This document shows, one piece after another, positions 20,633 through 61,682 of a DNA stretch of 64,000 nucleotides (its first letter is position 1; each line of letters starts with the position of its first letter). The DNA comes from Eledone cirrhosa (Eukaryota). A program made the position numbers and the translations under genes. The notes below the pieces were generated by a model. It did no database searches. It was given only the letters and a program-made list of their open reading frames with translations, and was not told the DNA's origin. The stretch is from the NCBI GenBank assembly GCA_964016885.1, contig OZ024740.1, forward strand, positions 100,254,001 through 100,318,000, in the 5' to 3' direction.

Positions 20633-21094
20633 TATATATATATAATTGAAAATGAATGAACAAAACACAGGAGGAAATTGTACACAGTTATGTTAGGTTC
20701 ATGTGTGTATGTTTCTGTTTATGCATTTTAAATGTTCCCACAGCTTCTTAAGTAAACAACTTTGTTTGTATATATATACATATATATATATAACCGAGCA
20801 TTATAATAAGTTTTCGGTAAACCCATATGTACATATATATATGTGTGCATGTATCTATACATACTACTGTACGTCTGTATACATATATGTATGTTCGTAT
20901 ACATACATACTTACATTTAAGTACCAACCGTACTAAGAGTGAGAAATGAAATTGCGTTTCATTCTTTTCCATTTATCGTTTTCGGTGCGCCCGGCCGGCT
21001 AACTCACTCGATATGCAAATTAGGCTGATCAGCCGTTAATATGCATAAGGAAAGTATATACTTTCAGACGTTCAACCATTTGACAGAAACCTAT

Positions 21095-21137
21095 ACGATC
21101 CTGCCGATAGCTAATAAGGTTGAAACTAGTACATCGT
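21095..21137 (+). ncRNA. Hammerhead motif, family A, core mutated (CTGCCGA)
   Basis: ACGATC-CTGCCGA-TAGCTAATAAGGTT-GAAACTAGTA-CATCGT. Confidence 0.7.
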
Positions 21138-21284
21138 TCCTGTGTCAGTGTTGTACAAAAAGGTGACGATGGTTGCCTGAACACTGTACGGCGTAATTCG
21201 GGCTGTTTCTTTGTTTACAAACAAACCGAGCATTATAATAAGTGTTCGGTAAATCCATACGTACATATATATATATGTGTGCAT

Positions 21285-24200
21285 CCACTGTTCTTCTAGC
21301 CCTCAATTTTCCCACCGTTATGGATGGATGAGCTGGGAATACACGAGCAACTCTGAATCAATAGATGAAATATGAATCTGCGAGCTACCAAGCACCCACG
21401 TGAAGCGCCAACCCAGAGACCCTCCCCTACGAGTGTCGACAAATGCCCAAAACTCCGAGTTGGTACCATCAATGTAGGCTCAATGAAAGGAAGAGCAGGA
21501 GAAATCGTAGAAATGCTAGAGCGAAAGGAAGTTGATGTATGCTGTGTGCAAGAGACTAGATGGAGAGGAGGGTCTGCTAGAGTCCTTGTAGGAAAAAGCC
21601 AGTGCTACAAATTTTTCTGGGTGGGAAATGACGATGGGATGGGTGGTGTAGGTATACTATTAGCTGACAAGTGGGTAGATAAAGTAATCTCAGTGTACAG
21701 GGTAAATGCAAGAATCATTAAACTTAGACTAGTCCTGAATAAGACAATTACCACAATAATATCAGCTTACGCACCCCAATCGGGGCTGCCAGACGAACTT
21801 AAGGATAGGTTTTATGAGTCCCTAATACACACTACTGCTCTAACAGACGACAAGGACTTCCTAATCATTGCAGGAGATTTTAACGGACACGTAGGTAAAC
21901 ACTGCGACGGCTTCAATAGAGTACATGGAGGCCATGGAGTTGGCACAAGGAATGAGGAAGGATTCAGACTTCTAGAATTCTGCGACGCCAATGACATGTC
22001 GATATGTAACACAAACTTTAAAAAACCCGACAACCACCTGATCACCTATAGATCAGGGGAGCACTCTAGTCAGTTAGATTTTATCCTCATCAGAGGACGT
22101 GACAGATGGACGGTCGTAAACACAAAAGCCTTCCCTAGTGAGGAATGTACATCCCAACATAGCTTAGTTGTCAGCGACCTCACGGTCAGAACTAGACGAG
22201 CCCTGAAACAGAGGCCAACCTGGAGAAGAAAGATCTGGAAGCTGAAAGTCCCCTCAACCAGTAAAAGATTTAAAGATATTTTACTCAACGCCTACGACAG
22301 TAAAGAAGAACAGATAGAGACATTTAACGTAGAAGAGAACTGGGAGTTCCTAAAAAATAACTTACTAGAGGCGACGGATGAGGTTTGTGGCTGGAGTAAG
22401 ACCTCAAGCAGGAGGAGAGTGACTTGGTGGTGGAACAATAAGGTAGATGAAGCAGTCAAGGCCAAGAGACAGGCATGGAAAGAATGGAAGAACGGGGGGA
22501 GCAGGGTACATTACATAGAGACCAAGAGGGAAGCTAGGCGACAAGTATACTTAGCTAGGAGGGAAGCAGAGGATAGAAAATTCAAGCATGTTTTACAACG
22601 TGAGGACCAGAAACAGGAGGTATTCAAGATTGCGAGGCAGTGTGTCAGAGATAGTTGTGATGTCATTGGAGAGAAGTGTATCCGGAATGATAAAGGTGAG
22701 ATTGCCCTCACAAGTGCTGAGAAGAAAGATGCATGGAAGAGTCATTATGATAGATTAATAAATGAGGAGAATGCATGGGAAGAAGAGACCCTACCCCACG
22801 TAGACCCTATAGAGGGACCAGCAGTACAAGTCAGCGGCAGCGTAGTAAGTAAGGCAATCAGAGATATGAAGATAGGGAAGGCAACCGGTCCATCGGGTAT
22901 AGCTGCCGAGATGCTGAAGGCATCTGGGTCTGTAGGTCACACTATAACCACACGTATCGTTAACCAGGTAATACTAGAGGGGGCCATACCAAAAGATTGG
23001 TGCAGTAGCATCATTGTCAACTGCTACAAAGGTAAAGGCGATGCACTAGATAGAGGAAACTATAGAGGTATAAAGTTGATGGACCAGGTCATGAAAGTAA
23101 CAGAAAGAGTTATAGCACAGCTGATTAGGGACCGGGTGAATATAGACGAGATGCAATTTGGGTTTGTACCAGGGAAAGGCACCACTGATGCCCTCTTCCT
23201 TGTGAGGCAATTACAGGAAAAGTACCTAGCTAAAAGTAAGCCACTCTACTTGGCATTTGTCGACCTTGAGAAAGCCTTTGACAGAGTTCCACGTGCAGTA
23301 ATCTGGTGGGCTCTTAGAAAACTAGGAGTAGATGAATGGCTTGTGAAAGCGGTACAAGCCATGTATAGGGGAGCAGTCAGCAAAGTTAGGATTGGCAATG
23401 AGTATAGCGAGGAATTTAGCGTACAGGTTGGGGTCCACCAGGGCTCTGTTCTTAGCCCTCTCCTGTTCATCATAGTCCTGCAGGCAATAACGGAGGAGTT
23501 TAAGACCGGATGCCCATGGGAACTCCTGTATGCTGATGACCTCGCACTCATAGCTGAATCTATGGTAGAACTAGAGAATAAATTCCAAACCTGGAAGCAG
23601 GGACTAGAGAGAAAGGGCCTCAAAGTCAACATGACAAAGACTAAGGTCCTTGTAAGTAGACGAGAAAACAGAACCCAGATCCCCTCAGGGAAATGGCCTT
23701 GCTCAGTATGTAGGAAAGGTGTAGGTAGAAACTCCATTCTCTGCCCCAAATGCAAACAATGGGTACACAAGAGATGTAGCGGGATCTCAGGAAGCTTAAT
23801 TAAGAATGTAGGATTCACATGCAGCAGCTGTGCTGAAACAGCAAGCAAACAGCCACAGGAAACAAGTACCACCAATCTCTGGGAGGGCCCTGTAGAAACA
23901 GTAGACAGCTTCTGCTACCTAGGTGACCGAATTAGCAACGGAGGTGGGTGCTCAGAAAGTACAATAACTAGGGTAAGAACGGGATGGAAGAAGTTTAGGG
24001 AACTACTACCACTGCTAGCTGCAAAAGGCTTCTCCCTCAGAATGAAAGGCAGACTGTATGATGCGTGTATCCGAACAGCGATGTTGCATGGTAGTGAGAC
24101 CTGGGCGCTGAAGGTGGAAGACTTACGTAGATTAGAGAGAAACGAAGCCTGCATGCTCCGATGGATGTGTAACAGTAATATACGTGAACGACAAAGCATA

Positions 24201-24797
24201 AAGGAATTGAGAGAGAGACTGAGCATAAGAGGAATCAAATGCTGCGTGCAGGAGAGGCGGTTACGCTGGTATGGACATGTGATGCGTATGAAGGATGACA
24301 GCTGCATAAAAAGGTGCAGAGCACTAGAAGTTGATGGAAACCGCGGAGTGGGGAGACCCAAGATGACTTGGGATGAGGTGATAAAAGCCGACCTTACCCA
24401 ACTACACCTCTCAAAGTCAATGACACACGACCGTGACTTCTGGCGTCACGCAGTAATACAGGGTACCCGACCTCCCATGGGTACATGCTGAAGCATATAA
24501 ACAATATGCCCCCCCCCCCCTCCACCGCAAGGTGGCCGTGGAGGTGCCACGGCAAAAAAGCACCCAGCCCACACTGTAAAGTGGACGTGTAGGCGCCACG
24601 AAAAAGCACCCAGCACTCACTGTAAATGAGGTTGGTGTTAGGAAGGGCATCCAGCTGTAGAAATCAAGCCAGATCAGTTCCTGTATGAGCAAGGCATGGT
24701 CAGCCGACCAGACACTGCCCACAACAGGACAACCCGTCTAACCCATGCTAGCGTGGAAGAACGGACGTAAAACGGTGATGATGATGATGATGATGAT
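21285..24797 (+). mobile_element. Full-length RTE-clade LINE
   Basis: 87 bp 5' UTR, single ORF, 3' UTR with about 44 bp repeats, (GAT)n tail. Confidence 0.95.
21372..24491 (+). CDS. RTE ORF: APE endonuclease + reverse transcriptase + PHD-type zinc finger (1039 aa, uninterrupted)
   Basis: GTINVG, VQETRW, SAYAPQ, AGDFNGHVG, LDFIL (EN); FVDLEKAFDRV, GVHQGSVLSPLLF, LYADD (RT); CSVC..CPKC..HKRC..CSSC. Confidence 0.97.
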   Translation: MNLRATKHPREAPTQRPSPTSVDKCPKLRVGTINVGSMKGRAGEIVEMLERKEVDVCCVQETRWRGGSARVLVGKSQCYKFFWVGNDDGMGGVGILLADKWVDKVISVYRVNARIIKLRLVLNKTITTIISAYAPQSGLPDELKDRFYESLIHTTALTDDKDFLIIAGDFNGHVGKHCDGFNRVHGGHGVGTRNEEGFRLLEFCDANDMSICNTNFKKPDNHLITYRSGEHSSQLDFILIRGRDRWTVVNTKAFPSEECTSQHSLVVSDLTVRTRRALKQRPTWRRKIWKLKVPSTSKRFKDILLNAYDSKEEQIETFNVEENWEFLKNNLLEATDEVCGWSKTSSRRRVTWWWNNKVDEAVKAKRQAWKEWKNGGSRVHYIETKREARRQVYLARREAEDRKFKHVLQREDQKQEVFKIARQCVRDSCDVIGEKCIRNDKGEIALTSAEKKDAWKSHYDRLINEENAWEEETLPHVDPIEGPAVQVSGSVVSKAIRDMKIGKATGPSGIAAEMLKASGSVGHTITTRIVNQVILEGAIPKDWCSSIIVNCYKGKGDALDRGNYRGIKLMDQVMKVTERVIAQLIRDRVNIDEMQFGFVPGKGTTDALFLVRQLQEKYLAKSKPLYLAFVDLEKAFDRVPRAVIWWALRKLGVDEWLVKAVQAMYRGAVSKVRIGNEYSEEFSVQVGVHQGSVLSPLLFIIVLQAITEEFKTGCPWELLYADDLALIAESMVELENKFQTWKQGLERKGLKVNMTKTKVLVSRRENRTQIPSGKWPCSVCRKGVGRNSILCPKCKQWVHKRCSGISGSLIKNVGFTCSSCAETASKQPQETSTTNLWEGPVETVDSFCYLGDRISNGGGCSESTITRVRTGWKKFRELLPLLAAKGFSLRMKGRLYDACIRTAMLHGSETWALKVEDLRRLERNEACMLRWMCNSNIRERQSIKELRERLSIRGIKCCVQERRLRWYGHVMRMKDDSCIKRCRALEVDGNRGVGRPKMTWDEVIKADLTQLHLSKSMTHDRDFWRHAVIQGTRPPMGTC

Positions 24798-25752
24798 ATA
24801 CATACTACTGTACGTCTGTATATATATATGTATGTACGTATACATACATACTTACATTTAAGTACCAGCCGTACTAAGAGTGAGAAATGAAATTTCGTTT
24901 CATTCTTTTCCATTTATATATATATATATAATTGTCTTACTTGAATATGCATACATAAACAATGAAGCAACGACATAGGAAGAAACTGAGCATAACAGAA
25001 ATAAAATGCAGTGTGCAAGACAAAAGACTTTGCTGGTATAGATACATGATGCATATGAATGATGATCGTTAGTTGAAAAATGCCAGATCTAAATGGAAGG
25101 AAGCTGCAGAAGAGGAAAAACTGGACAGAAATGGTGAGAGCTCTCAGAATGCTGAATCTTAAAGAGGATGCAATAAGCAGAGGAATGTTGTGCTAGGGAA
25201 GATCTTCCCCATGTACACAAGTTCGAAAAAAAAATGGTGATGCTACATATATGCATACACATGCATACTCACACACAAACACACACACATGCACTGACAT
25301 ATACATATATATATATTCTTCTTCTTCGTGCTCTTTTTCGATGGGACTTGGGTCTTCATAAGTCAGCAATCTCAGAGGCATCATCGGGTGTAGAGCCAAC
25401 CAGGTCCACCAGTACCCACTATTGCTGGCAGCCTTCTGCTAGCCCTCCGCATCCTTTAATACAAACATATATACAGATACATATATATAAATTTATGCAC
25501 AACACACCATATATATGAAGATCCAAAGTAAATTTAATTTAGACTTAACTACACTTTTTAAATTACAAGTTTTGCTTTGAAAATAAGTTTAATGAGACTT
25601 TTTCTTATTCACTATATGCACAGAAAATTATTAGAGACTTGACTTCAACCCATCTAGAAGGACAATAAATCTAAATAAAATCTTACTTAGACTGCAGCAA
25701 CCCATCCAATACATGGAGATCATTGAAAGGGGACTTTATATTATGAGGATAA

Positions 25753-25947
25753 TAATTGTTTCTACTTTTGGCACAAGGCCAGCAATTAACCAGTGTATTA
25801 CTGGTACTTTATTTTTTATCGACCCCGTAAGGATGAAAGGCAAAGTTAACCTCGGCGGGATTTGAACTCAGAATGGCAAGGGCCGTAACTCTATGCGTCA
25901 AAGCATGGCGTCCGACCATCTACCGATACTGCCAATCCACCGCCCTT
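25753..25947 (-). mobile_element. Meta-type SINE, full length
   Basis: Reverse complement of the 1869 family; TSD TATTATGAGGATAATAAT. Confidence 0.88.
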
Positions 25948-27233
25948 ATTATGAGGATAATAATGAAAATGATGTATATAATCATTGTGACTGTTTAATG
26001 TATATTTGCCATGACTGCATTGATTATGAGGCTTGATAAGGCTAATAACTGTGTCTTACACATACACTCTGTTTGGCTTGGCTTTCTAAACTTGGATGAT
26101 CTTCCTAATCCCAACCACATTTCCGCATCTACTGGGAAGTTTTTTTGGTGGTCCCAGCACTACGACCTCACACACACACACACACTTGATAATATAATGT
26201 ATGTTTATTTTAAAACATTTTGAAGACCTTTCTCTATGAGTTTTAAAGTACTGACTATGTCACTTATTTAATCTCGGCAAAAACAAAGAGAAGCAACCGA
26301 CAGCCGTTTCTCAATCGTTATGATGTATGAACATAAATAAATAATACATATATATATTTATTTATTCATTCAATTTAAACGTGCTAGTAAGCTATGAGAG
26401 ACATGGGTAGTATTGAATAATCCTTACAGTTGGTAATCAAAAAGAGCTAGTGAGACAAATATTAAAAAATAAAATAAAAAAAAATAAAAGAAAAAAACTA
26501 AAATTTAAATTTAAAAAAAAGAGAAAAGGGGAAATGAAATAAAATAACGAAAATAACATTTCAAATATTGAAGGCCAATAGGAGGCAGATTATGTCTAAG
26601 AAAATAAAAAGGAAGATAGGAAACAAGGGAAGCTATAAAACATTTAGAAGTTTCACTTGTTGAAACTTTTTGTAGTTTCCATGTCCTCAAATGTTTTGTT
26701 TATATTTGGAAGACCTGTAATCAAATATTGAACTTCCAATCTTGGTAGGTTTTTAAGGATTGGTTTATATATAAGCCATCATACATGCACCATTCTCTCC
26801 ATTCTTTGTCAGTTGATGCACTTGGAATATTGTTTTTTCTTTATAATTTACTGAAAGGCATAAGCTACCCTGTCTTTGTCTCTACATGTTTTGTTATGTT
26901 CCAATGAGCACTGGAATGAGCGGTATCAATGTTAATGTTGTCCTGATTTCCAGAGACTAAGTGGGGAGATGAGACTGTCCTTTTTCCCATTGTCTTTGTT
27001 CTGTGTGTCCCACTGTTTTGAATTTATATCCTAAAGACATGTCAGCTTTTTCAAAACTATATATATATATTAAAACAAATTTCGCTCTACATGGCTGAAT
27101 ATAATAAATGTAATTTGAGTTTTTCGAATATTAATAATAACATTCGATTCGTTTTCAATTATGCAAACAAGCCTCAATTTAAATAGCCATGTGGGTAGAA
27201 TGAACACTTCATTCTTGCTCTTATGTTGACATG

Positions 27234-27297
27234 TGAACATAACTGCAGACCCTAATGTTTCTGGGTACCACCCTTCGTCAGTACAGCTCACTGTTCA
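27234..27297 (-). ncRNA. Type I hammerhead motif (family A')
   Basis: Minus strand TGAACAGTGAGCTGTA-CTGACGA-A-GGGTGGTACCC-A-GAAAC-ATTAGG-GTC-TGCAGTTATGTTCA. Confidence 0.75.
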
Positions 27298-27354
27298 TCT
27301 GCCAAAAAGTCAGAGCTAGTGAAAATATGTGCTATTTTCAAAAATACACAGTGA

Positions 27355-27453
27355 CTGATCGGCCTGATTTGCATATTAGCAAACTGGCGGATCAACTAGA
27401 TCTACATATTAGCAGATCCACTGATCAGCCAGATTTGCATATCAGCAGACTGA
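27355..27453. repeat. 3 x 33 bp minisatellite containing the octamer ATTTGCAT
   Basis: CTGATCGGCCTGATTTGCATATTAGCAAACTGG / CGGATCAACTAGATCTACATATTAGCAGATCCA / CTGATCAGCCAGATTTGCATATCAGCAGACTGA. Confidence 0.85.
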
Positions 27454-28942
27454 CCAAGTCTTGCTCATACAAGAACTGGTTCTGACTTGATTTCTACAGC
27501 TGGATGCTCTAGCTAACACCAACCTCGTTTACAGTGCATGCTGGGTGCTTTTTCTTGTGGCACCTACACGTCCACTTTATAGTGTGGGCAGGGTGGTTTT
27601 TTCCGTGGCGCCTCCACGACCACTTTGCAGTGGGAGGGGATGGGGCATATTGTCTATATGCTTCAGCTTCGGCTTGTACCCATGGGGAGTCGGGTCTTCT
27701 GTATTACTGTGTGATGCCAGAGGTCACGGTCGTGTGTATTCGCCTTTGAGAGGTGTAATTGGGTAAGGTCGGCTTTTATCACCTCATCCCAGCTCCTCTT
27801 GGGTCTCTCCACTCCGCGGCTTCCATTGATTTCTAATGCTCTGCACCTTTTTATGCGGCTATCATCCTCATACGCATCACATGTCCATATCAACGCAACC
27901 TCCTCTCCTGCACACAGCAATTGATTCCTCTTATGCTCAGTCTCTCTCTCAATTCGTTTATGCTTTGCCGTTCACGTATATTACTATTACAGCGCCCAGG
28001 TCTCATTACCGTGTAACATTGCCGTTTGTATACACGCATCATACAGTCTGCCTTTCATTTTAAGCGAACAGCCTTTTGCAGCTAGCAGTGGCAGTAGCTC
28101 TCTGAACTTCTTCCATCCCGTTCTTACCCTAGTTATTGTACTTTCCGAACACCCACCTCTGCTGCTAATTCTGTCACCTAGGTAGCAGAAGCTCTCTACT
28201 CTTTCTACAGAGCCCTCCCAGAGATTGGTGGTGCTTGTTTCCTGTGGCTGTTTGCTGCTTGCTGTCCAAGCGCAGCTGCTACATGTGAAGCCTACTTTCT
28301 TAGTTAAGCTTCCTGAGATCCCACTACATCACTTGTGTACCCATTGTTTGCATTTGGGGCAGAGGATGGAGTTCCTACCTACACCTTTCCTACATACTAA
28401 GCAAGGCCATTTCTCTGAGGGGATCTGGGTTCTGTTTTCTCGTCTATTTACATGGACCTTAGTCTTTGTCAGGATGACTTTGAGACCCTTTTTTCAAGTC
28501 CCTGCTTCCATGTTTGGAATTTGTTTTCTAGTTCTACCATAGATTCAGCTATAAGTGCGAGGTCATCTGCATACAGGAGTTCCCATGGGCATCCGGTCTT
28601 AACCTCCTCCGTTATTGCCTGCAAAACTATGATGAACAAGAGAGGGCTAAGAACAGAGCTTTGGTGGACACAGACCTGTATGCTAAATTCCTCGCTATAG
28701 TCATTGCTAACCCTAACTTTGCTGACTGCTTCCCTATACATGGCTTGTACAGCTTTCACAAGCCAATCATCTACTCCTACTTTTCTAAGAGCCCACCAGA
28801 TTATAGCACAGGGGACTCTGTCAAAGGCTTTCTCCAGATTGACAAATGCCAGGTAGAGCGGCTTACTTTTAGCTAGGTTCTTTTCCAGTAACTGCCTCAC
28901 AAGGAAGAGGGCATCATTGGTGGCTTTTCCTGGCACAAACCC
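27448..28942 (-). mobile_element. RTE LINE fragment, same subfamily as 21285, lacking its tail
   Basis: ORFs 28469-28936 (LYADD) and 27663-27920; 3' UTR breaks off into the 33 bp repeats. Confidence 0.9.
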
Positions 28943-29064
28943 TAATAATATATATATATTGGAATTTCGTATTTCTAAAGAAATGCGGTATGTTTATAAA
29001 TAAACATTTAGAAATTCGTAGCTATGCAAAATACTATTGGCTATCGTCATCTGGCAAGGGTGAC

Positions 29065-29110
29065 AATCTTCAATGCATTTCAAACTGAAAGGGTTCTCAT
29101 CAGGACGATC
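29065..29110 (-). ncRNA. Decayed minimal hammerhead motif (family H)
   Basis: Minus strand GATCGTC-CTGATGA-GAACCCTTTCAGTTT-GAAATGCATT-GAAGATT, within a 280 bp island between TA tracts. Confidence 0.6.
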
Positions 29111-29240
29111 CCTCCCGCTCTTGAAACTGCTGAATTTTGAAAACAGGTGAGAATATATAGTTTTTCTCATCTGTGTAAATGAGGGGATTAATCTCAATAC
29201 ACATCTGTATACAACTATGCTCAACGCTGAATTATAATTC

Positions 29241-29279
<39 letters not shown>

Positions 29280-29524
29280 AGCGTGGAAGATGGACGTTAA
29301 ACGATGATGATGATGATGATGATGATATGTATATGTATGTAGATAATATTTAATATATAAATATAATATATACATATATAATATGATATATATCATATAT
29401 ATATATAAATATATATATACATATAATATATGCATATATATATAATATACATATATGATATATACATATATATATATATGATATATATATATAATATATA
29501 TATATGTATGTATATATATGTGTG

Positions 29525-29558
<34 letters not shown>

Positions 29559-30874
29559 ATATATATACATATATAATGTATTCATATCTATAGCCATATC
29601 TATATCTATATATATATATGTACATATCATCTCATCATCATCTTTTTTTTATGTGTCGAGCAACACAGTAATAAATAAATAGATAGAGAACTAGTTGTTG
29701 TGGGTATGCTGAAATTAAACCAAATTTCTGTTTCTGATGTGGGTCTTCACTGATGTAGCTTAATTTAATGAAAATGTCAATGATAAAAGCATTCTGACAG
29801 AAATAAGAGAACTAAAAAGTTAATGTAACCAAAAAATCAACAATTGCTTCATTTGAGGGAAAAGAAACCCTAAACAGTAGAATATAATATGAAGCAGTAT
29901 TGCTTTTATTTGGCATTGGCCAGAATAAATCTGAACCAATATTCTGTTCTTCTTTGTTCTTTTACATAAGCTTTCCCCCACTGCAGTGTCGTGTCTGCTT
30001 GTATTCCATAGTAGAAGGCTTTGTGATTTTTCATATATTTTTATATATTATAAGGACTATTACTGTTCAGCTTTTACTGTTTTGATAGCAAATGAGAAAA
30101 TCTTGTCAAGATAAAGTAAGTAGAACAATATCAGTAAGAATATCATATCTGCAGTGCCCCAATATGGACTTAAACCATGCTGAGATTCTGGAAGTATGTC
30201 AGTTGCATTGTGCATCAGCAGATGATTAAGAAGAATCTTGGCAATGATTTTACCAACAAGTGATAGTAAAGAGATACCACAATAGTTGTCATAAACATTT
30301 TTATATCCATTGTTGAAGAGGGGGTGAAAATTGGTGTCCCTCCAGTTCTATGAAGTCATTTTTTTCAAGAGATTGTTCTATTTACCAACTTTTTGCACTA
30401 TTTCAGCCACTATACCATCTTTCCAAGATGCTTTGCTCGTTTTCATTTGTTTCACTAATCTTAACATCTTCCAATGTGGGAGGATCATCAAGGTGTTTAG
30501 TGACAGGAGCCTACTCTATAGTGTAGGACAGAACAAAGGAGAGATACAAAATAACAAATTAGTCACTGAGGAGGTCACACAATGCATGATGAAAGAGAGT
30601 TAACAATAAATAAACAACCATCCAGTTATTAAACCAACCAACTGGAAATTTGTAGTAAATTGAAGTGAAAACCAATAGGTGCTTGTGTTTTTTTTATTGG
30701 CAACATGACCCTCCCAAAGTAAAACAATATCTCTTTCAACACGTTTACAGAAGAAATCTTGCAAAACAAATACAAGATCAAAGTATATATATGTGCATAA
30801 ATGAATACATCTTTATACACATACGCCCAACAAGAGCAGGCCTTTAAAAGTGGGCAATACACACACACACACAC

Positions 30875-30931
<57 letters not shown>

Positions 30932-30935
<4 letters not shown>

Positions 30936-31003
30936 AGTAAGTAAGACCCCGACGGCTGAGCTCAAGTCGTTTCGACGGCTAATTCTTACCACTTTTCCCT
31001 CGC
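30932..31003 (-). mobile_element. Family E fragment (3' half of hammerhead)
   Basis: Minus strand AGCCGTC-GAAACGACTTGAGCTCAGCCGTC-GGGGTC between TA tracts. Confidence 0.6.
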
Positions 31004-31036
<33 letters not shown>

Positions 31037-31049
31037 ATATATTGTCCAC

Positions 31050-31080
<31 letters not shown>

Positions 31081-31225
31081 TCAGGTTTGAGGTTCACCAC
31101 TGGATAGAGCTGGTCAATTCCGTATGTTCAATCTCAATGTAATAATATGCAGAGTACTCAACGTAAAGCAGTTCAACCGTCTTTGTTTTTGTAGTTGGTG
31201 GTGTTAGTACGGAGTTAAGTATTAT

Positions 31226-31362
31226 AATTGTTTCTACTTTAGGCACAAGGCCAGCAATTACCCAGTGCATTACTGGTACTTTATTTTATCGACCCCGTAA
31301 GGATGAAAGGCAAAGTCAACCTTGGCGGGATTTGAACTCAGATCGTAAAGGGACGTAACTAT
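31226..31362 (-). mobile_element. 5'-truncated Meta-type SINE nested in the family B element
   Basis: Reverse complement of the 1869 family; TSD AGTATTATAAT. Confidence 0.85.
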
Positions 31363-31420
31363 GAGTATTATAATGAAATGACAGGAGGCTGGATTTGTGT
31401 AAATCCTTGAAAGGTTTATT

Positions 31421-31478
31421 ATACTATGATCATTTCAATGACCAGGTTCCGTATGAAACCGGTGATATCATCAGGTAT
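31421..31478 (-). ncRNA. Minimal type I hammerhead (family B)
   Basis: Minus strand ATAC-CTGATGA-T-ATCACCGGTTTCATACGGAACCTGGTCAT-T-GAA-ATGATCAT-A-GTAT-AATAAA. Confidence 0.8.
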
Positions 31479-31605
31479 TCGAAATATAATAAGTGAATGT
31501 AATAGATAAAATCCATTGGGCTGAAAATCAAAGACCCGAGGACGACCGCCAGCCAGCATCTTCCACCTTTCAAGGATTTACACAAGTCCAGCCTCCTGTC
31601 ATTTC

Positions 31606-31637
<32 letters not shown>

Positions 31638-31638
<1 letters not shown>

Positions 31639-31682
31639 AGTATGTATACGTACATACATATATGTATACAGACGTACAGTAG

Positions 31683-31742
<60 letters not shown>

Positions 31743-32236
31743 CATGCACACACATATATATATGTATGTATGGATTCACCGAACATTTATTATAATGCTC
31801 GGTGTGTTTGTAAACAAACATCCCGAATTATATCCCGTCTGTATACATATATGTATGTACGTATACATACTTATATTTAAGTAACAGCCGTACTAAGAGT
31901 GAGAAATGAAATTTAGTTTCATTTTTTCCGTTTATCGTTTTCGGTACCCCGGCCGATTAACTCACTCGATATGCAAATTAGGCTGCTCAGCCGTTAATAT
32001 GCTTAAGGAAAGTATATACTTTCAGACGTTCAACCATCTGGCAGGAAGGTATACGTTGCTGACGATAGCTAATAAGCTTGAAACTAGTACAGCGTTCCTT
32101 TGTCAGTGTTGAACAAATGAGCAACGATGGTCGCTAGACACTGTACGGCTTAATTCGGGATGTTTGTTTACAAACACACCGAGCATTATAATAAATGTTC
32201 CTTGAATCCATACGTACATATATATATGTGTGCATG

Positions 32237-32296
<60 letters not shown>

Positions 32297-32404
32297 CTAC
32301 TGTAGGTCTGTATACATATATGTATGTACGTATACATACTTATATTTAAGTAACAGCTGTACTAAGAGTGAGAAATGAAATTTAGTTTCATTTTTTCCGT
32401 TTAT
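31638..32404 (+). mobile_element. Family A element copy 2 (inverted 5' piece + about 1.2 tandem units)
   Basis: 31638-31830 inverted; TACTAAGAGTGAG recurs at 31891 and 32360; ends CGTTT|ATATA. Confidence 0.85.
32029..32113 (+). ncRNA. Type I hammerhead with extended stem I (family A, best copy)
   Basis: TTCAAC..CTGGCAGGAAGGTATACGTTG-CTGACGA-T-AGCTAATAAGCT-T-GAAACTAGTA-CAGCGTTCCTTTGTCAGTGTTGAA. Confidence 0.88.
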
Positions 32405-32467
32405 ATATATATATATATATATACAATGATATTAAATAAATGGAAACTATATTTATAAAACCATATT

Positions 32468-32531
32468 TATTCTATTATATATATATTTCAAGGGTACCAA
32501 AAACTCTGGTACGCTTTCATCAGATAAAATA
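32468..32531 (-). ncRNA. Type I hammerhead with (AU)5 stem III (family D)
   Basis: Minus strand TATTTTAT-CTGATGA-AAGCGTACCAGAGTTTTTGGTACCCTT-GAA-ATATATATAT-A-ATAGAATA. Confidence 0.8.
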
Positions 32532-32973
32532 CAAAGAGTGTTTTACAAATTTTGACATAGCCAAGGAAACCATACCTTATCAGTTAAATTTTCTTTGGGT
32601 AGTGAGATTAAAAACGGATTTTTCAAACTTAGGGATAAATATGCAAATGAATATGTAAATAAGCTTGAGTTATATGATTGAAAAACCGTTATTTTAAACG
32701 CTATGGAAAGTCTAGATATATAATAAGAAGAGAGAAAGAAAGAAAAAATAAAAAAAATAAATAGGAAAAAGAAGAAGGAAAAGGGTAAAGGAAAAAGAAG
32801 ACCACTTATATACGTTAATTTGGGGGAAATAAATTCGAATATTTACCTATATTATGTATATACTTATATGGAGAATTACTTTTGTAAGTATTTATCTTAT
32901 TATAATATTGTAGTGGGTTAAATATATAAATATCTATATTTGTTGAATTTCCAACAAATTAAATATCACTTCT

Positions 32974-33022
<49 letters not shown>

Positions 33023-33040
33023 CGAGAGAGAGAGTGTGTG

Positions 33041-33861
33041 AGAGAGAAATGTGTTACACAGTGAGAAGTGTGTAAACAATTATTACATGTGAGTTTAACC
33101 GTTACTGTATGGAGAACAATACCTACAGGTTAGCAATTAAATAGAAAAAAACTAAGTCAGAATCAAATCTCTGAAGTAGAGTTTTAAATTACTAACCTTA
33201 TAACTATAAACTTGCTGATACGAATTTACTTCGTTTCACCACAGAAATGTGCCGTATAACAGCCCATAGGATCCTCAGTCAGCAAGTATGGGTACTGGGT
33301 CACGACACATCTAGCCTAATGGATAGAGAGCAAGCTAATAAACACGCTGCCCAGAGTAGGGCGAAATCACGTGTTATTTGCATCAAATAACGGCTCTCAT
33401 GAATTGGAGGAAAATGCTAGAGAGAGCAGCCCAACCATTTGAATTTGTTAGCTCAACCAACTGAATGGTTGGGCTGCTCTCTCTAGCATTTTCCCACAAT
33501 TCGTGAGAGCCGTTATTTGATGCAAATAACACGTGATTTCGCCCTACTCTGGGCAGCGTGTTTATTAGCTTTCTCTCTATCCATTAGGCTAGATGTGTCG
33601 TGACCCAGTACCCATACTTGCTGACTGAGGATCCTATGGGCTGTTATACCGCACATTTCTGTGGTGAAACGAACTAAATTCGTATCAGCAAGTTTATAGT
33701 TATAAGGTTAGTAATTTAAAACTCTACTTCCGAGATTTGATTCTGATTTAGTTTTTTCTATTTAATTGCTAACCTGTAGGTATTGTTCTCCATACAGTAA
33801 CGGTTAAACTCACATGTAATAATTTTTTACACACTTCTCACTGTGTAAAACACTTCTCTCT
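33041..33861. repeat. Long inverted repeat: about 400 bp arms, 24 bp spacer
   Basis: 33041-33439 is the reverse complement of 33464-33861 with few mismatches; flanked by TA/GA microsatellites. Confidence 0.93.
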
Positions 33862-34029
33862 GTGTATTTACATTTGAGCTCAGATGAAAATTCTCTGTTC
33901 TTCTTCGAGCTCATATTATTATTACTGTGAACTGCGGAATACTTTAATTCCAATCTTTGTATATATATATATATATATATATACATATATATATTTATGT
34001 GTGTCTTCATTTGATTCTTGCTCTTCTTC

Positions 34030-34750
34030 TCCCACTTATTCTTGAAAGAGTAATGAGGCAGAGGTCACAAGTGGGTCCTGTCAGAAGCAACCATCTCCAA
34101 TTGATCTAGCTGGATACCCAAGTGAGACCAACCAAGCTCATACATGTTAACCAGCCATCTTGCTCAGTGTCTACATCTGGGTCTCCTGCTGGTTGATTTT
34201 TACCTCTAAAATCTGTCCAGTGATTCATTCCTGAGACATACTAAACACATGCCCAAAGTATTGTAGCTGTGATCTCTCAATTCAGAGAAGTAGCTGCTCT
34301 ACCTGGAGTGATTCTCTGATCTCTGAGCTATGTCGTCTATTGAGTAACATTACTCCAAAGAGCCTTCAGAGAAACCCATTTCAACGACTTGTATTTGTGA
34401 TCATATTCTTTCACTCATTACCCTAGATCCATGACTCTAGGTAAGGGTTGGCATGAATACTGAATTGAAGATAATGACTTTGGCTTTTACACCTACCTCC
34501 TTTCTTTTGATTACCAAATGCTGAAACCGGCACATTACTGCAATAGCTCCTGCAATTATTCCATTTAATTCAGAACATTGAAAATGGCCCTGAGATACTT
34601 GAACGTCTCCATCTGCTTCAGTGGAGTTCCATTCAGATGTAGAGTGCAATGCACAGGCTTCCTTGAGAAGATGAGTGTCTCAGTTTTCGCAGCACTGATT
34701 TTCATATATATATAGTGGTAGAACACTAGTGCATTATATCCGCAGTAGTA
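34030..34750 (-). pseudogene. Decayed RTE LINE 3' portion
   Basis: KISAAKTETLIFSRKPVHCTLHLNGTPLKQMETFKYL; KAKVIIFNSVFMPTLT. Confidence 0.7.
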
Positions 34751-34778
34751 GAGCACTCAGTCTATGGGACAAGTTTGG

Positions 34779-34952
34779 TAGAAGTCATTCCACAACAGTT
34801 AATACACCATTTCCGAGAACAATTTGTTTCACCTCAAATGGATCATCAGCTTCGTATAAATGAGATAAAATTCAAACCGCGCTGAAGATCTGTTTGAGGT
34901 GAAACAAATTGTTCTTGGAAATGGTGTATTATCTGCTGTGGAACTACTTCTA
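34779..34952. ncRNA. Divergent pair of minimal hammerheads in a 72 bp inverted repeat (family I)
   Basis: Plus CCGCG-CTGAAGA-TCTGTTTGAGGT-GAAACAAATTGT-T-CTTGG; minus CTGATGA-TCCATTTGAGGT-GAAACAAATTGT-T-CTCGG. Confidence 0.7.
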
Positions 34953-35477
34953 TATCTATATATAAAACATAGCACACACTTTTTCCTCTCTGTTTTTCTT
35001 TGCTTTTTTCCTTAAAGCTTGCCATCATTTCGTTGGTACACAGCTATTATGCAATTTACACCTGATGTCTCTACATATAAGGGCATACATAGGCCCGCTT
35101 ACGACCACATTATCCATCTGGGAGAAATTGTGTAGATGCATTCATGTGTCTACACGATTCTACCCATGCGCTTCCATATTTGTGTGCATGCTTACACACA
35201 CACATGTATGCATGCACGTGTGTGTCAGCATATATTAATATATATGCTTGTAAGCGGATTTAAATGAAAACAACTCTGTGCCCCCTTTGACCTGTCCAGA
35301 CCTTAATTTTCACACAAAAGAGGTTAAGAAAAAAAATAATAATTAAACCATTTCCAGCCAGCATAGTATAGCAAGCCACATTGGACACTGAAATAGATCC
35401 TTTATTTTCCTTGGAAAAGGGATATTAATCTTGAAATATTAGGACATGTGAATAAATTAAGGTAAAAAGTATGTATA

Positions 35478-35510
<33 letters not shown>

Positions 35511-35540
<30 letters not shown>

Positions 35541-36343
35541 TTTACATCCGCTTTCCCTGCTTGCAAGGGTGGGACGGGTCTTATTCAGCACAGCATCTCT
35601 CCACTCGTCACGGTCCTTCGTCATCTCCACCGTGAGCTTCAACGATCTGAGGTCTGTTCTCACCAGCTCTGCCCATGTTTTTTGTGGTCTACCTCTACCA
35701 GGTCTTCCTTCAACTGGCAATTCCTGGCACTTATTCACCCATCGGTCATCCTCCATGTGCATCACATGTCCATACCACCTCAGTCTCCTCTCCCGTACAC
35801 TACATTCTATCCCTCTCAGACACAGTTTCTCTCTCAACACATTTATGCTGGGTCGTTCACGCACATTTACACTGCACATCCAACGGAGCATGCTTGCCTC
35901 ATTTCTCTCCAGCCGTCGCATATCCTCTGCAGTTGCTGCCCATGTCTCACTACTATGCAACATCGCGCTCCTCACACAGGCATCATACAACCGGCCTTTC
36001 GTACACAGGGAGAAACTCTTCTTCGTCAACAGAGGAAGCAGCTCCCTAAACTTCTTCCAATCCGTCCTTATTCTAGATACTATGGCCTCGGAACACCCTC
36101 CTCTCATGCTAATCTGATCTCCTAGGTACCGGAAGCTATCCACCACTTCTATAGCGCCCTCCTGCATCTGAAAAATGTGTCTATCAATGCGACTTCTACT
36201 GTCTAATTTCCCTGTACATCTACTGCATACATATTTCTCCCTACCTGTTAGTTTGCCTGCTATCCCGCTACATCTCTTGTGTACCCAGGATCTGCATTGT
36301 GTGCATTTTATAGAATTTATGCCAGTTCCTTTTCTGCATTCTT
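35511..36343 (-). mobile_element. 5'-truncated RTE LINE, subfamily 2 (very short 3' UTR)
   Basis: ORF 35457-36167 with a PHD remnant upstream; (GAT)n tail on (TA)n. Confidence 0.9.
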
Positions 36344-36425
36344 CATATATATATATATATATAAATAAATATATATATATATGTATATATGTATATATAT
36401 ATATATTTATATATATATATATATA

Positions 36426-36686
<261 letters not shown>

Positions 36687-37354
36687 CTTATATATATATT
36701 TATATATATATATATATATACATATATGTATATATAGAAATAAAAACTCATATATATATATGCATGCATATATATATATGCATGCATATATATATATTAA
36801 CTTAGTATTATTCCATCTCAGCATGTTAGCTAGTGTGAAGTTTCTATTTCTTTTAGGAAGTAATTCCCAATTTAGTGATTTGCTGTATAGATTTCAGTAA
36901 ACATGACAACATAAGCTCTAATTTGTCTCACAAATTTCTCAATTGTAGACTTATATAGTGAAATAGTGAAGAAATTGCATGAAATGTTCAATGAATAATA
37001 AACTATAAGACATATAAGCTAAGACTAGTGATGATTAGATAACCATGTTTTCTTGGTTTGTTTATCTTTTGGTATTATGTCTAGATCTAGTTTTTCTTTC
37101 TTAAATGATCCTGAACCAGACCACTCTTATCTAGTTTGGAGCCATGGTGTGAAATCATTAGAGTGCATTTTTCATGATTTTGATTATTTTTGTCTTCACC
37201 TTTAGATTTGCCATGATAGTATTTGTTTTGGTTAAGTTGAGGCCAAATTCCATCATGGTCAACTGTGCCTTTCCTCTTTCAGGGGCTGATAAAATAAAGT
37301 ACCATTCCAATTCCAGTACTGGAGTCCATCTAATTAACTTTCTCTTACCATTGC

Positions 37355-37465
<111 letters not shown>

Positions 37466-39148
37466 TGGCAAATGAATAGTTGCCTTTACTGTTTCTCTTC
37501 CATTACACTTTTCAACATGATCCCTTATCACTTACTCCTTCTCACTCTCTGTTTCTCCTATCATACGTTAACTCCCTTAATCCAGTTTCCCTGCTATTAC
37601 ACTCTTTTTCATTACTCCCCGATTACTCCCCTTCAGTCCCATTTCATTCCAACACTGATTCTCTCATTATATTCATTAAACTTCACCCATATTCCTTGTT
37701 TTTCATGCCATTGCTCTCCATTCTATTTGCCCTCTTGGTCACATTGACTTTGTGTCACAAGTATTTGTGTCATAATAAAATGTACATATTATACTCTGTA
37801 AAATGATTGGAGCCAATGTACAGTTGAAAAGACATTTTAGATCTGCTGAGGTCATAACAACTGCTCTTGTGCAGCTGCCATAATATGTATCCAGTAAACT
37901 ATGCAAGGTAGTTGATATAACAAAACCAGCTGTAGAGACCATGCCTCAAACCTACAAGTGTGATGTGACCCCTCTGAAGTCTATAGACAGACAGTAACTC
38001 TGAATAAGAACTAACTCAGAACATGGTATCACCAATACCTTTATAGAGTGTATACCGTACATTTAATTGTGGTATCCTAGAAAGCAATGGGTGTTGCCTA
38101 ATCAGAACCACACAACATATGCCAGGACAGCCCATCATCTCCATCGATGGAAATATAGACAGTCCAACATATGACTGTGGGGATCCTGACCAGGCAGTAC
38201 TGCCTATTGATTTAGGATTGCCTCCTCAGACGTTTTCCTGGCGGTCTGGAGGCAATCCATAATACTACATATGACACCCTAGTCTGGCTCACCAATATCA
38301 ATGTCTCTCTAATCAGTAAGCATATGTCATACAATAAGAAGATTGTGGCACCAGGATTGTGGCTTTACTGTGTATACTGGGTGCATACTATTGTAATACC
38401 AGCATTAAAAATGTTGTCATGTGCTTGATGAGACTGAAGCATTCTCTCTACCCTACAATCACCAGCCACTTTACAGGGTTCATTGAGTTTCTTTTATCAT
38501 GGCACCTGTACTATAGAGTGTGTCAGATCCCCGACAAGATCAAAGGATCATGTATACGCCCTGTTGTATATGTATTCATCAGCCACTCCTATTCATTAAT
38601 GTCTTTAAAGAAATTCTCCTTTCCATGCAGTCTCTGATCTCTCATAACATTTATATTTATCATCAACTTGCTTATTTTCTCTAGTACCGGGTGTTTCCAG
38701 TTATCGCAATCATTTAACATCTTCATGAGGTGACTCTTCGTTGTAGGCTTAAAATGATGATGATGGCGGGGGATGTGGGATTGAGGGGGGAGGTAGGAGT
38801 TGAGTTTGGTGTGATGGTATTTCAAGGAATATATAACATCAGATGAGAACAGGGAAAGCAGCTTCTTTTTAACTTTTTCCTCTGATAAAGATAGAGCAAT
38901 GCCTATATTTGCTGCTGGTCTGCTTAGATCAGTAAATCAATATGGGTGCTGTTTATTTATCTTCAACTTCTGGTGGTTTAGAAAACTTCGACTGGAATAG
39001 AATTATTGAACAATCAGTGTAGTATGGACAAACAGAGGGTGGAGAGCTAGATAGGCTATTTGGCATGACTCAACAATTTTGAAAGGCCCTACTTTTCTAC
39101 ATTTCTAGTCCTTTTATTCTATTGCACTACTTGTATATACATCATGTA

Positions 39149-39194
<46 letters not shown>

Positions 39195-39340
39195 ACATCT
39201 TTAATAAACGAAGCCAAATCTTAAATATTTGACTTAATTACTTTATTTTACATTACTCCGGAGTAACCAAAACAACCTGCGTACTTTGTCGAGTGCTCCA
39301 ATCTGCATATTTAGGTGTCTGTAAACAACCAACATATACT

Positions 39341-39402
<62 letters not shown>

Positions 39403-39594
39403 GTACATATATATATGTATACAGACGTACAGTAGTATGTATATATATACATACATGCACACATATATATATGTACGTATGGATTTATCGAACATTTATT
39501 ATAAAGCTCAGTTTGTTTGTAAACAAACATCCCGAATTAAGCCGTACAGTGTTTAGCAGCCATCATTGCCCTTTTGTTCAACACTGACAAAGGA

Positions 39595-39637
39595 ACGACG
39601 TACTAGTTTCAAGCTTATTAGCTATCGTCAGGATCGT
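39595..39637 (-). ncRNA. Hammerhead motif, family A
   Basis: Minus strand ACGATC-CTGACGA-TAGCTAATAAGCTT-GAAACTAGTA-CGTCGT. Confidence 0.82.
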
Positions 39638-39905
39638 ATACCTTCCTGCCAGATGATTGAACGTCTGAAAGTATATACTTTCCTTATGCATATTAACGGC
39701 TGTGCAGCCTAATTTGCATATCGAGTGAGTTAATCGGCCGGGTGCACCAAAAACGATAAACAGAAAAATTGAAACGAAATTTCATTTCTCACGCTTAGTA
39801 CGGCAGTTACTTAAATATAAGTATGTATACGTACATACATATATGTATACAGACGTACAGTAGTATGTATACATAGATGCACACATATATATATATGTAT
39901 ACATA

Positions 39906-40243
39906 TTCCTCATTTCTAGTACCAAACCCATAGCCTCCATGGATTTCGTCGTAGCCGTCACAATGTTGTCCAACGTGACCGTTTAGGTCGCCTGCAATAA
40001 TTATATAGTCACTGTCGGTTATTTGGGAGGTAGTGAGCATCAGTGTCTCATAGAATCTGTCTTTTATAGTGCTGGGCAGTCCGGATTGGGGTGCGTACGC
40101 GGATATTACTGTCACCGTAGTTCTATTGAGGACAGTCCTATGCGAGCAAGACAATCACTCTTGCCTCAAGTGGGAAAACCCCCGTCCAAACCCATGCAAG
40201 CGTGGAACACGGACGTTAAACGTTGATGATGATGATGATGATA
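39906..40243. mobile_element. 5'-inverted RTE fragment
   Basis: 39906-40130 minus-strand EN coding (SAYAPQ..GTRNEE) joined to a plus-strand 3' end with (GAT)n; about 36 bp duplicated flank TATGTATACATAGATGCAC... Confidence 0.8.
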
Positions 40244-40369
40244 TGTATACATAGATGCACATATATATATATATATATGTACTCAATATGCAAATTAGGC
40301 TGCTCAACCGTTAATATGCATAAGGAAAGTATATACTTTCAGACGCTCAATCATCTGGCAGGAAGGTAT

Positions 40370-40412
40370 ACAATCCTGACGATAGCTAATAAGCTTGAAA
40401 CTAGTACATCGT
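40370..40412 (+). ncRNA. Hammerhead motif, family A
   Basis: ACAATC-CTGACGA-TAGCTAATAAGCTT-GAAACTAGTA-CATCGT. Confidence 0.8.
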
Positions 40413-40651
40413 TCCTTTCTCAGTGTTGAATAAAAGGGCAACGATGGTTGCTAAACAATGTACGGCTTAATTCGGGATGTTTGTTTACAAACGCACCGAG
40501 CATTATAATAAATGTTCGGTGAATCCATACGTACATATATATATGTGTGCATGTATGTATATATATACATACTTATATTTAAGCAACAGCCGTACTAAGA
40601 GTGAGAAATGAAATTTCGTTTCATTTTTTCCGTTTATATATATATATATAT

Positions 40652-55631: not shown

Positions 55632-55682
<51 letters not shown>

Positions 55683-55698
55683 GTATATATATATATGT

Positions 55699-55816
55699 AT
55701 ATGAATGTAAATATAGTGTATTTTGCAATACACTGTATGCTTAATTAAAAGCATTTCGAAATGCTTTTAATTAAGCATACAGTGTATTGCAAAATACACT
55801 GTATATACATTCATAT
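55699..55816. repeat. Spacer-less near-perfect palindrome centred on TTCGAA
   Basis: Centre 55757/55758; each arm reads CGAA-ATGCTT-TTAATT-AAGCAT-A-CAGTGT outward. Confidence 0.9.
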
Positions 55817-55848
55817 ATATATATCGCTATTTCAGAGCACCAATTCTG

Positions 55849-55895
<47 letters not shown>

Positions 55896-60944: not shown

Positions 60945-61394
60945 TTTTCCTTTCCTAGGACAAAAAGTCCCAGGAACGGCAAAATATATCGCCATCTGCC
61001 AGCTACCACAGGATTGAATGGGGCCGAAAATTGGACCTATGCGTGAACCACCCGTAGTAGAAACAGAAGTAAACATAGACGTATTGTCTACCTCGCCACT
61101 AAAAATAGTAGCTAATAAAACAACGGATTTGTTCTCTACATAACGGAGAATATTAAAAGAAGTTAATGTCCCCACAGCTACTAAGTACCCCTGGAAATAT
61201 ATAGGGTGTCTATGATACAATGGTTGTTCTATGGTATTAATTTGACATACCAGAACTATAAAATTGAGATAAGCGGAGCAAGCAAAATTCAAACAATTTT
61301 TTTAAATAAATTAAAAAATATAATTTAAATATTTACCTATTCCATTTGCTTTTACCGAACGGTTTCACTTCACAAAAGATTGGAGGAAAGAAAA

Positions 61395-61478
61395 TGTTTT
61401 CTGATGATCTAAACTTTTCCATTGGAAGTCCCTAGGGATCTCCAATCTTTTGTGAAGTGAAACCGTTCGGTAAAAGCA
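61395..61478 (+). ncRNA. Type I hammerhead (family C, inverted copy)
   Basis: TGTTTT-CTGATGA-T-CT..ATTGGAAGTCCCTAGGGATCTCCAAT..AG-T-GAA-ACCGTTCGGT-A-AAAGCA. Confidence 0.82.
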
Positions 61479-61560
61479 ATTGGAATAGGTAAATATTTAA
61501 ATGATATTGTTTTATTTATTTTAAAAAATTGTTTGAATCTTGCTTTCTCCGCTTATCTCA

Positions 61561-61682
<122 letters not shown>

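Follow-up and report, generated by a model that had tools for sequence, protein, structure and literature searches.

Coupled insertion ends suggest that a hammerhead retrozyme family of Eledone cirrhosa acts as a non-autonomous Penelope-like element

A tandem repeat at three loci

We analysed a 64,000-nucleotide stretch of the Eledone cirrhosa genome (GenBank assembly GCA_964016885.1, contig OZ024740.1, positions 100,254,001 to 100,318,000 of the forward strand; hereafter the window, whose own coordinates are used throughout), which holds three loci of a non-coding repeat that we call family A. Its unit of ~428 bp (36% GC, longest ATG frame 58 aa) carries one type I hammerhead ribozyme (HHR) motif. 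The contig that holds the window measures 443 Mb, in an assembly of 3.0 Gb in which AT microsatellites and long interspersed nuclear elements (LINEs) are plentiful. Family A occurs as dispersed, 5'-truncated partial tandems, as head-to-head inverted arms and as a few long arrays, inserted in (TA)n, and on this sequence evidence it is very probably a retrozyme without long terminal repeats (non-LTR) that acts as a non-autonomous Penelope-like element (PLE).

The loci were mapped by self-BLAST and, with a masked query, against a rotated reference unit, which placed them at 20792-24917, ~31638-32404 and ~39396-40637 and bore out a sequence-only reading of the window that had described a tandem repeat of about 430 bp at three loci. 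Locus 1 amounts to ~1.4 units on the plus strand, interrupted by a LINE. Its 5' part (20792..21284) is a 5'-truncated partial tandem that follows an AT run and covers unit positions 243-428 and then 1-301, and its 3' part (24796..24917) covers positions 312-428 and passes through what we term the long (L) end into (AT)n. The LINE between them (21285..24795, plus strand, with a (GAT)n tail) is a later insertion, and it is probably young, because its 1040-aa frame (21369-24491; AP endonuclease, reverse transcriptase (RT) and PHD finger) is uninterrupted. The arms of locus 2 lie head to head: the inverted arm (31638..31830, minus strand) runs from unit position 217 to ~369 and reaches (AT)n at a short (S) end, and the direct arm (31836..32404, plus strand) runs from 329 to 428 and then from 1 to 428, reaching (AT)n at the L end. 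Within the direct arm stands ATGCAAAT (31971..31978, plus strand), which we take to be the motif known as the octamer, and for which a promoter role would be a guess; it occurs in the same register in a sister family, B, described below. In locus 3 the inverted arm (39396..39894, minus strand) stops in an AT run a few bases before the S site, and the direct arm (40281..40637, plus strand; unit positions 30-428) again passes through the L end into (AT)n. Between the two arms sits a short LINE-derived piece (39895..40243, no strand assigned) with a (GAT)n tail and a flanking AT-rich duplication of ~35 nt. The three loci are dead-end copies, with at most one HHR per strand.

Insertions end at two coupled sites

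The sequence-only reading had placed the ends of the sense copies at 24916, 32404 and 40636, and we found them within 2 nt of these positions: the plus-strand copies end at CCRTTT|(AT)n, and at internal positions that sequence continues into the following unit. Its further claim that the 3' ends are identical holds for these three copies but not for the two minus-strand arms, which fall short of that point by ~60 nt and stop at TACTT|ATAT or slightly ahead of it, by a few bases; the two ends are equally common. The tail between the S and L ends (32342..32404, plus strand, in locus 2) is ~60 nt long and contains a predicted stem-loop (-14.1 kcal/mol for the fold of 32331-32404).

Ends were then scored in 70 loci taken from the first 100 listed matches to the HHR core (the first 31 Mb of one contig), which after removal of five overlapping loci gave a position-ordered sample of 65 loci and 105 arms. 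Arm ends at unit positions 405-428 were counted as L and those at 345-377 as S, windows that are broad, were set after inspection of the data and together make up 13% of the unit. There were 46 L ends, 46 S ends, 12 ends elsewhere and one at a locus edge; 92 of 105 arms thus end in the two windows, which does not bear out a single site. An AT run lies at most 30 nt away in 79 of these 92 arms. Among the 32 head-to-head pairs in this sample, 23 combined L with S, one was L+L, none was S+S and eight involved another end (p=1.4e-6 against independence), so that 23 of the 24 classifiable pairs were L+S. An earlier end classifier, superseded by the position-only rule, had returned 38 L, 31 S, 35 other and one edge end, with L+S in 16 of 32 pairs and neither L+L nor S+S. 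Searches with exact end patterns found 2,184 L and 2,743 S ends genome-wide, counts that are lower bounds and come from differing patterns, against 12 at a TATATA elsewhere in the unit, taken as a control; TA microhomology alone was accordingly rejected as the cause of the ends, this 6-nt site having been used 12 times rather than thousands.

The 5' ends are scattered. They fell within 4 nt of the predicted cleavage site in one of 105 arms, against 2.2 expected, and with no pile-up there we rejected a cleaved linear monomer as the template. Since 47 of the 105 arms also exceed one unit, the proposal that a tandem type I hammerhead retrozyme is copied from RNA of more than unit length is supported.

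Passages of Craig 2021 (10.1101/2021.04.23.441226) and of PMC3846280 give as hallmarks of PLEs partial tandems, an adjacent inverted 5'-truncated copy, a tail of 30-40 bp usually at one end, and a bias towards (TA)n. Family A has 5' truncation, partial tandems and the adjacent inverted copy, and its tail is confined to one end of a pair in 23 of 24 classifiable cases in the position-ordered sample and 10 of 14 in a similarity-selected sample. We interpret its two ends, ~60 nt apart, as this PLE tail, that is, as two coupled internal start sites of reverse transcription; according to passages of PMC11167929, a purified PLE starts at two internal RNA sites and the tail is the span between them. 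The fixed priming site proposed earlier is therefore right as to fixed internal starts, but these are two coupled sites of a known kind rather than one, and the coupled pair is more informative than the single end. Nor does a fixed internal start imply a circular template, because the same purified PLE is described as initiating internally on linear RNA.

One hammerhead motif per unit

Four HHR-like motifs of family A lie in the window (cores at +21101, +32059, +40376 and -39631), each in the order CUGANGA, helix II of a U·U and 4 bp, GAAA, palindromic ACUAGU helix III and GUA|C. Motif 2 (32059..32089, plus strand; CUGACGA, U·U and 4-bp helix II, GAAA, ACUAGU, predicted GUA|C cleavage after 32089) is the sole copy in the window with core and helix I both intact, and around it an extended helix I (32028..32114, plus strand) comprises a 6-bp proximal stem, an internal loop and three more helices. 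Motif 1 (21101..21131, plus strand; predicted cleavage after 21131) is degenerate, with A6 changed to C, a C·C at the base of helix I and a mismatch in helix II; motif 3 (39601..39631, minus strand) has the C·C at the helix I base, and motif 4 (40376..40406, plus strand) has it together with a second helix I mismatch. The earlier count of four ribozymes is thus correct for motifs, three of which carry C·C beside the cleavage site.

The ACGATC form of stem I had been taken as the norm. It sets C opposite C where G stands in most copies, the G2.1-C1.1 pair being present in 96 of 102 family A copies from the position-ordered loci, and we do not retain it as such. The 32053 copy does differ from the others, as had been noted, but these are not all ACGATC/CATCGT, one being ACGATC/CGTCGT and one ACAATC/CATCGT. 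Genome-wide the C2.1 form has 11 exact matches, three of them within this window, and because it is so rare the three window HHRs that carry it are probably impaired and 32059 alone intact. As an observation in its own right, these three matches (21095, 39637 on the minus strand, and 40370) lie inside 20 kb, in two loci with differing nearest relatives, which could reflect local gene conversion or chance.

The exact core was found in 115 of 164 copies, and the CUGANGA and GAAA boxes, an NUH cleavage site and three helices of which helix I is open, which define a type I HHR, characterise 32059 and most sampled copies. The third helix I pair was U·G in 56, A-U in 26 and G·U in 10 of 102 copies. 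A descriptor scan of the window returned five motifs (three of the four in family A and two from other families), whereas 20 Markov controls gave 0-1 apiece. Public contigs (four runs, of unrecorded kind) showed 36 places with variation of 10% or more, two of which, N7 and a loop 2 base, fall in the 31-nt core; the pairing partners 32056 and 32092 both vary.

The extended stem described earlier (CTGGCA/TGTCAG and TTCAAC/GTTGAA) is present in the sequence. It is the predicted fold in two of the four copies (z -2.3 and -2.0) but not in the other two (+0.9 and +0.5), and across 68 aligned family A copies the structure is 94.9% paired; docking of loop 1 with loop 2 could follow from such a stem. 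Dimeric cleavage would be the likely mode, because a short palindromic helix III works poorly as a monomer and well as a dimer in PLEs (passages of PMC4209133) and in axolotl retrozymes (PMC7229834).

Thousands of copies and a few long arrays

The 31-nt core has 10,046 exact copies in the genome, against none for its reversed control. As a low-GC tandem unit within 150-450 bp that has one HHR and encodes no protein, family A conforms to the description of a retrozyme. Arrays at three loci (L152, L153 and L157) contain 16, 14 and 6 HHRs, and at least two HHRs in one arm were found in 9 of the 65 sampled loci and in L151-L153 and L157, and in none of the three window loci. Array units diverge by up to ~10% and show higher-order duplication patterns, so the arrays are evidence neither for a circle nor against one; the identity among units that rolling-circle copying might leave was looked for and not seen. 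L151 has five HHRs in ABAB order, with alternate units 0-4 bases apart and neighbours 14-16, for which a dimer template, local duplication or an assembly effect may be considered. Separately, L091:6788-8001 and L157 contain a divergent family A subfamily in an array, with a CUGAUGA core and a 7-bp helix I, and variants matching it occur in contigs of two other organisms.

At 42 subfamily-diagnostic columns, arms within one insertion match in 830 of 915 comparisons when inverted (91%) and in 618 of 653 when in tandem (95%), compared with 58% between loci. This agreement fits one template or one source for each insertion, and it would be seen equally if one subfamily at a time predominated.

Candidate driver elements in the genome

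A search for the GIY-YIG domain gave 10,596 candidates, of which 150 were scored and 40 loci of those 150 examined. The 40 loci include several RT and GIY-YIG families (RT and/or GIY-YIG recognised by Pfam), with the order RT, linker, C-terminal GIY-YIG, and a CX2-5CxxC linker was present in five of seven PLE proteins checked. The driver is probably of the Neptune type, a name that rests on the linker motif as given in passages of Craig 2021, where the same linker is described for Nematis. One element, L081, is complete (pseudo-long terminal repeat (pLTR), 938-aa open reading frame (ORF), pLTR), and its protein is an apparently intact candidate enzyme; an ESM Atlas look-up placed it in GIY-YIG/HTH_animal clusters without clade names.

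In autonomous PLE families, too, copies stop in (AT)n at either of two sites, ~65 nt apart. In one such family the ends lie ~72 and ~138 nt beyond the HHR motif in 7 and 12 of 21 occurrences, and two occurrences read through. Of the 10 divergent pairs counted in four autonomous families, eight were L+S, and two of these eight came from one duplicated locus. Scans of the PLE loci for a partner (BLAST and covariance model) recovered only inserted family A or sister copies; L095 and L091, in which family A lies near a PLE ORF, were rejected as linked elements, since family A turned out to have inserted there on the far side of an AT run.

Several features of these PLEs were recorded in passing. 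The pLTR hammerheads of L081, L099, L100 and related loci have a U3-A8 core, and those of one autonomous family combine the U·U and 4-bp helix II with a palindromic helix III, the layout of family A. At L025:2800-2830 a PLE pLTR halts at its short end and is joined, without an intervening AT run, to a family A copy truncated at the 5' end, a single case that is possibly a template switch.

Other hammerhead elements in the window

Sister family B occupies 27060-27460 (minus strand), with an HHR at 27207-27325 (minus strand) whose helix III segment is 8 nt, and it has the repeated octamer module, tandem and inverted copies, and (AT)n ends. A first look gave 1,923 candidates, of which 40 were scored and yielded 47 matches. 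Families A and B are colinear over ~240 nt (score 57; 300 shuffles had a mean of 25 and a maximum of 63), and B retains the HHR layout with a different sequence (E 0.027 and 1e-4).

Another HHR repeat family, at 32420-32560 (minus strand, core at 32523), shares an AT run with the end of locus 2; it has eight occurrences in the fetched sequence, with two end positions ~95 nt apart. A small element at 31366-31614, also present in L086, has inverted ends and a minus-strand hammerhead-like motif with a long helix II, and uses the AT run to the left of locus 2, so that three HHR elements are nested there. A degenerate copy at 30520-30790 resembles a further HHR family, with 12 copies in the fetched loci and two ends ~60 nt apart. 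The window also contains long palindromes at 33041-33861, 34779-34952, 55643-55881 and 61257-61568, the first of 824 bp at 96% identity, which are foldback or MITE-like (miniature inverted-repeat), and at 32-994 an open frame of 320 aa that encodes an integrase core domain and is likely a fragment of an LTR retrotransposon.

Discussion

The observed anatomy and copy number of family A, its coupled ends, the subfamily common to the arms of an insertion and the like signature in resident PLEs can be combined in a model of its movement. Transcription from tandem arrays would yield multimeric RNA in which, given the weak palindromic helix III, two adjacent HHRs would cleave as a dimer, releasing unit or multi-unit RNA that may circularise. 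A resident PLE that targets (TA)n, probably one of the Neptune type, would supply the RT and GIY-YIG protein, which would cut (TA)n and begin reverse transcription internally, at two sites flanking the tail stem-loop. Both target ends would then be extended, each from one of these sites on RNA of the same subfamily, giving an inverted pair with one long and one short end. The link to PLEs comes from junction anatomy; the sequence-only reading had overlooked this link as well as the inverted arms, and also that helix I is defective in three copies.

A number of results weigh against this model. In 29 loci selected by similarity, the coupling was weaker: 17 pairs comprised 10 L+S, three S+S, one L+L and three others (p=0.08). 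Divergence within loci (5.9-6.9%) is only moderately lower than between them (9.9%). Both-sided change in the 68 aligned copies affected 3 of 29 pairs, which is not above shuffles (295 of 500), and just one pair, in helix I, changes on both sides in many copies (U·G in 30, A-U in 24 and G·U in 9). Rfam recovered no hammerhead family from the window at E<=1 or from the 181-nt stretch 31980-32160 at E<=10, its output for both being low-complexity noise of the microRNA type. Motif shape is moreover a weak predictor of activity, since in passages of Li, Clavereau and Pollet (bioRxiv 10.64898/2026.07.22.740005) eight of nine predicted retrozyme dimers are reported as uncleaved in vitro. Finally, BLAST of the 40 GIY-YIG loci and a covariance model applied to 42 loci found no autonomous PLE with a homologous pLTR, and the family A tail resembled six PLE windows so weakly (best p=0.003, uncorrected over 18 comparisons) that we rejected tail alignments as a means of naming the partner.

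The alternative that survives best is a variant of this model, in which an uncleaved linear multimer transcribed from the arrays serves as template for the same PLE insertion and neither HHR nor circle has a role in transposition. Passages of PMC11167929 describe the PLE protein PAc as beginning internally on linear RNA and HHR mutants as inserting normally, long arrays are available as possible sources, and the divergence of array units by up to ~10%, with the ABAB order of L151, points to duplication at the DNA level. Set against this, the core is constant across subfamilies while the flanks vary, which suggests that the ribozyme is under selection in source elements; unit-length circles are predicted to fold well (z -5 to -8 for three units, values inflated by a self-complementary AT tract); and related animal retrozymes produce circles, according to passages of PMC7229834. 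We regard this variant as a serious contender, falling a little short of probable, and the choice between a circle and an uncleaved multimer as template as near even.

That the inverted arm is instead self-primed by fold-back on the first cDNA, with no second priming on RNA, seems unlikely. Subfamily alleles are common to both arms, and passages of PMC3846280 suggest self-priming for PLE inverted junctions. Fold-back, however, requires the second copy to lie inside the first arm, and in the two loci where nesting was judged it does not: the arms of L105 (236-366 and 266-428) are mutually non-nested, and of those of L108 (101-428 against 213-428 plus 1-369) neither contains the other. PAc, moreover, extends both strands in vitro (passages of PMC11167929). 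We consider it quite improbable that family A represents no more than a solo pLTR, belonging to an autonomous PLE outside our sample, rather than a self-contained unit; pLTR fragments of autonomous families are scattered in the same loci, and the examined GIY-YIG loci were 40 of 150 listed matches, but the unit end reads straight into the unit start with no intervening ORF, and arrays of 14-16 units exist. The idea that a repeat resembling a short interspersed nuclear element or a satellite was moved by AP-endonuclease LINEs or DNA-level processes, its hammerhead-like motif being coincidental, can draw on the abundance of such LINEs, two window loci included, and on the absent Rfam match, but it is scarcely credible given that these LINEs finish in (GAT)n and entered the repeat only later, that the repeat lacks such a tail, reads through its own ends and has coupled L and S ends as in PLEs, and that a sister family of different sequence keeps the HHR layout.

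Family A, read as a retrozyme moved by PLE enzymes, can be compared with known systems. Like the animal non-LTR retrozymes in passages of Cervera and de la Pena 2020 (PMC7229834), it has a low-GC tandem unit of 150-450 bp that bears a single type I HHR and is present in thousands of copies; its short palindromic helix III recalls the axolotl HHR_Amex1 and its U·U at the helix II base HHR_Amex2. Most of its copies, by contrast, lie dispersed and truncated at the 5' end, frequently in inverted form, and they stop in (TA)n at two defined 3' ends, of a kind that those passages do not describe; family A is known from DNA sequence, whereas circular RNA has been demonstrated for the retrozymes there. 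With endonuclease-bearing PLEs, as portrayed in passages of the works cited above, it has in common partial tandems, an inverted copy, a tail at one end, the (TA)n bias, an HHR in the repeat and two internal RT starts, and it differs from them in having no ORF and in a tail of ~60 nt rather than 30-40. Its start sites show 2-7 nt of TA microhomology, whereas those of PAc are reported in passages of PMC11167929 as non-homologous to the target. PLE hammerheads with a short palindromic helix III are expected in passages of PMC4209133 to need a dimeric fold, as in family A, which has a longer helix I (6 bp and an extension) and lacks the G10.1-C11.1 pair.

Among cephalopods, 235 Rfam hammerhead matches are listed for giant squid (PMC6962438), and the word ribozyme is absent from the main text of PMC13282606 and PMC8967140. 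We found no published description of such a cephalopod family in a search that left repeat databases, subscription journals and supplements outside its scope, and family A may already stand in repeat databases or supplements under another label.

Li et al. argue, in the passages at hand, that animal retrozymes are non-autonomous PLE derivatives. Their elements and family A have in common co-occurrence with PLEs and a proposed use of PLE enzymes; their case is built on co-occurrence and pLTR homology, mainly in vertebrates, and ours on junction anatomy, pLTR homology not having been found. Passages of Craig 2021 call the formation of the tandem and inverted structures of PLEs unresolved, and those of PMC11167929 describe a purified PLE, predicted to be a dimer, that cleaves AT-rich DNA on both strands, extends each of them and works independently of HHR cleavage. 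We tentatively propose, as a conjecture that could well prove wrong, that a PLE protein dimer, attached to one retrozyme RNA that is possibly a 428-nt circle, carries out each insertion, with two RT sites ~60 nt apart, flanking the stem-loop, extending both ends of one (TA)n cut. If so, long and short ends would be strictly coupled, the geometry of the PLE integration complex would be preserved in thousands of genomic copies, and the use of PLE enzymes by a retrozyme would be shown directly.

Retrozymes and PLE tails were already known; what makes family A valuable is the evidence and the test system that it offers. Which enzyme mobilises animal retrozymes has so far been inferred from co-occurrence and pLTR homology, to which family A adds a junction signature that matches resident PLEs, and its near-strict pairing of one long with one short end provides a testable model of twin priming on a 428-nt template.

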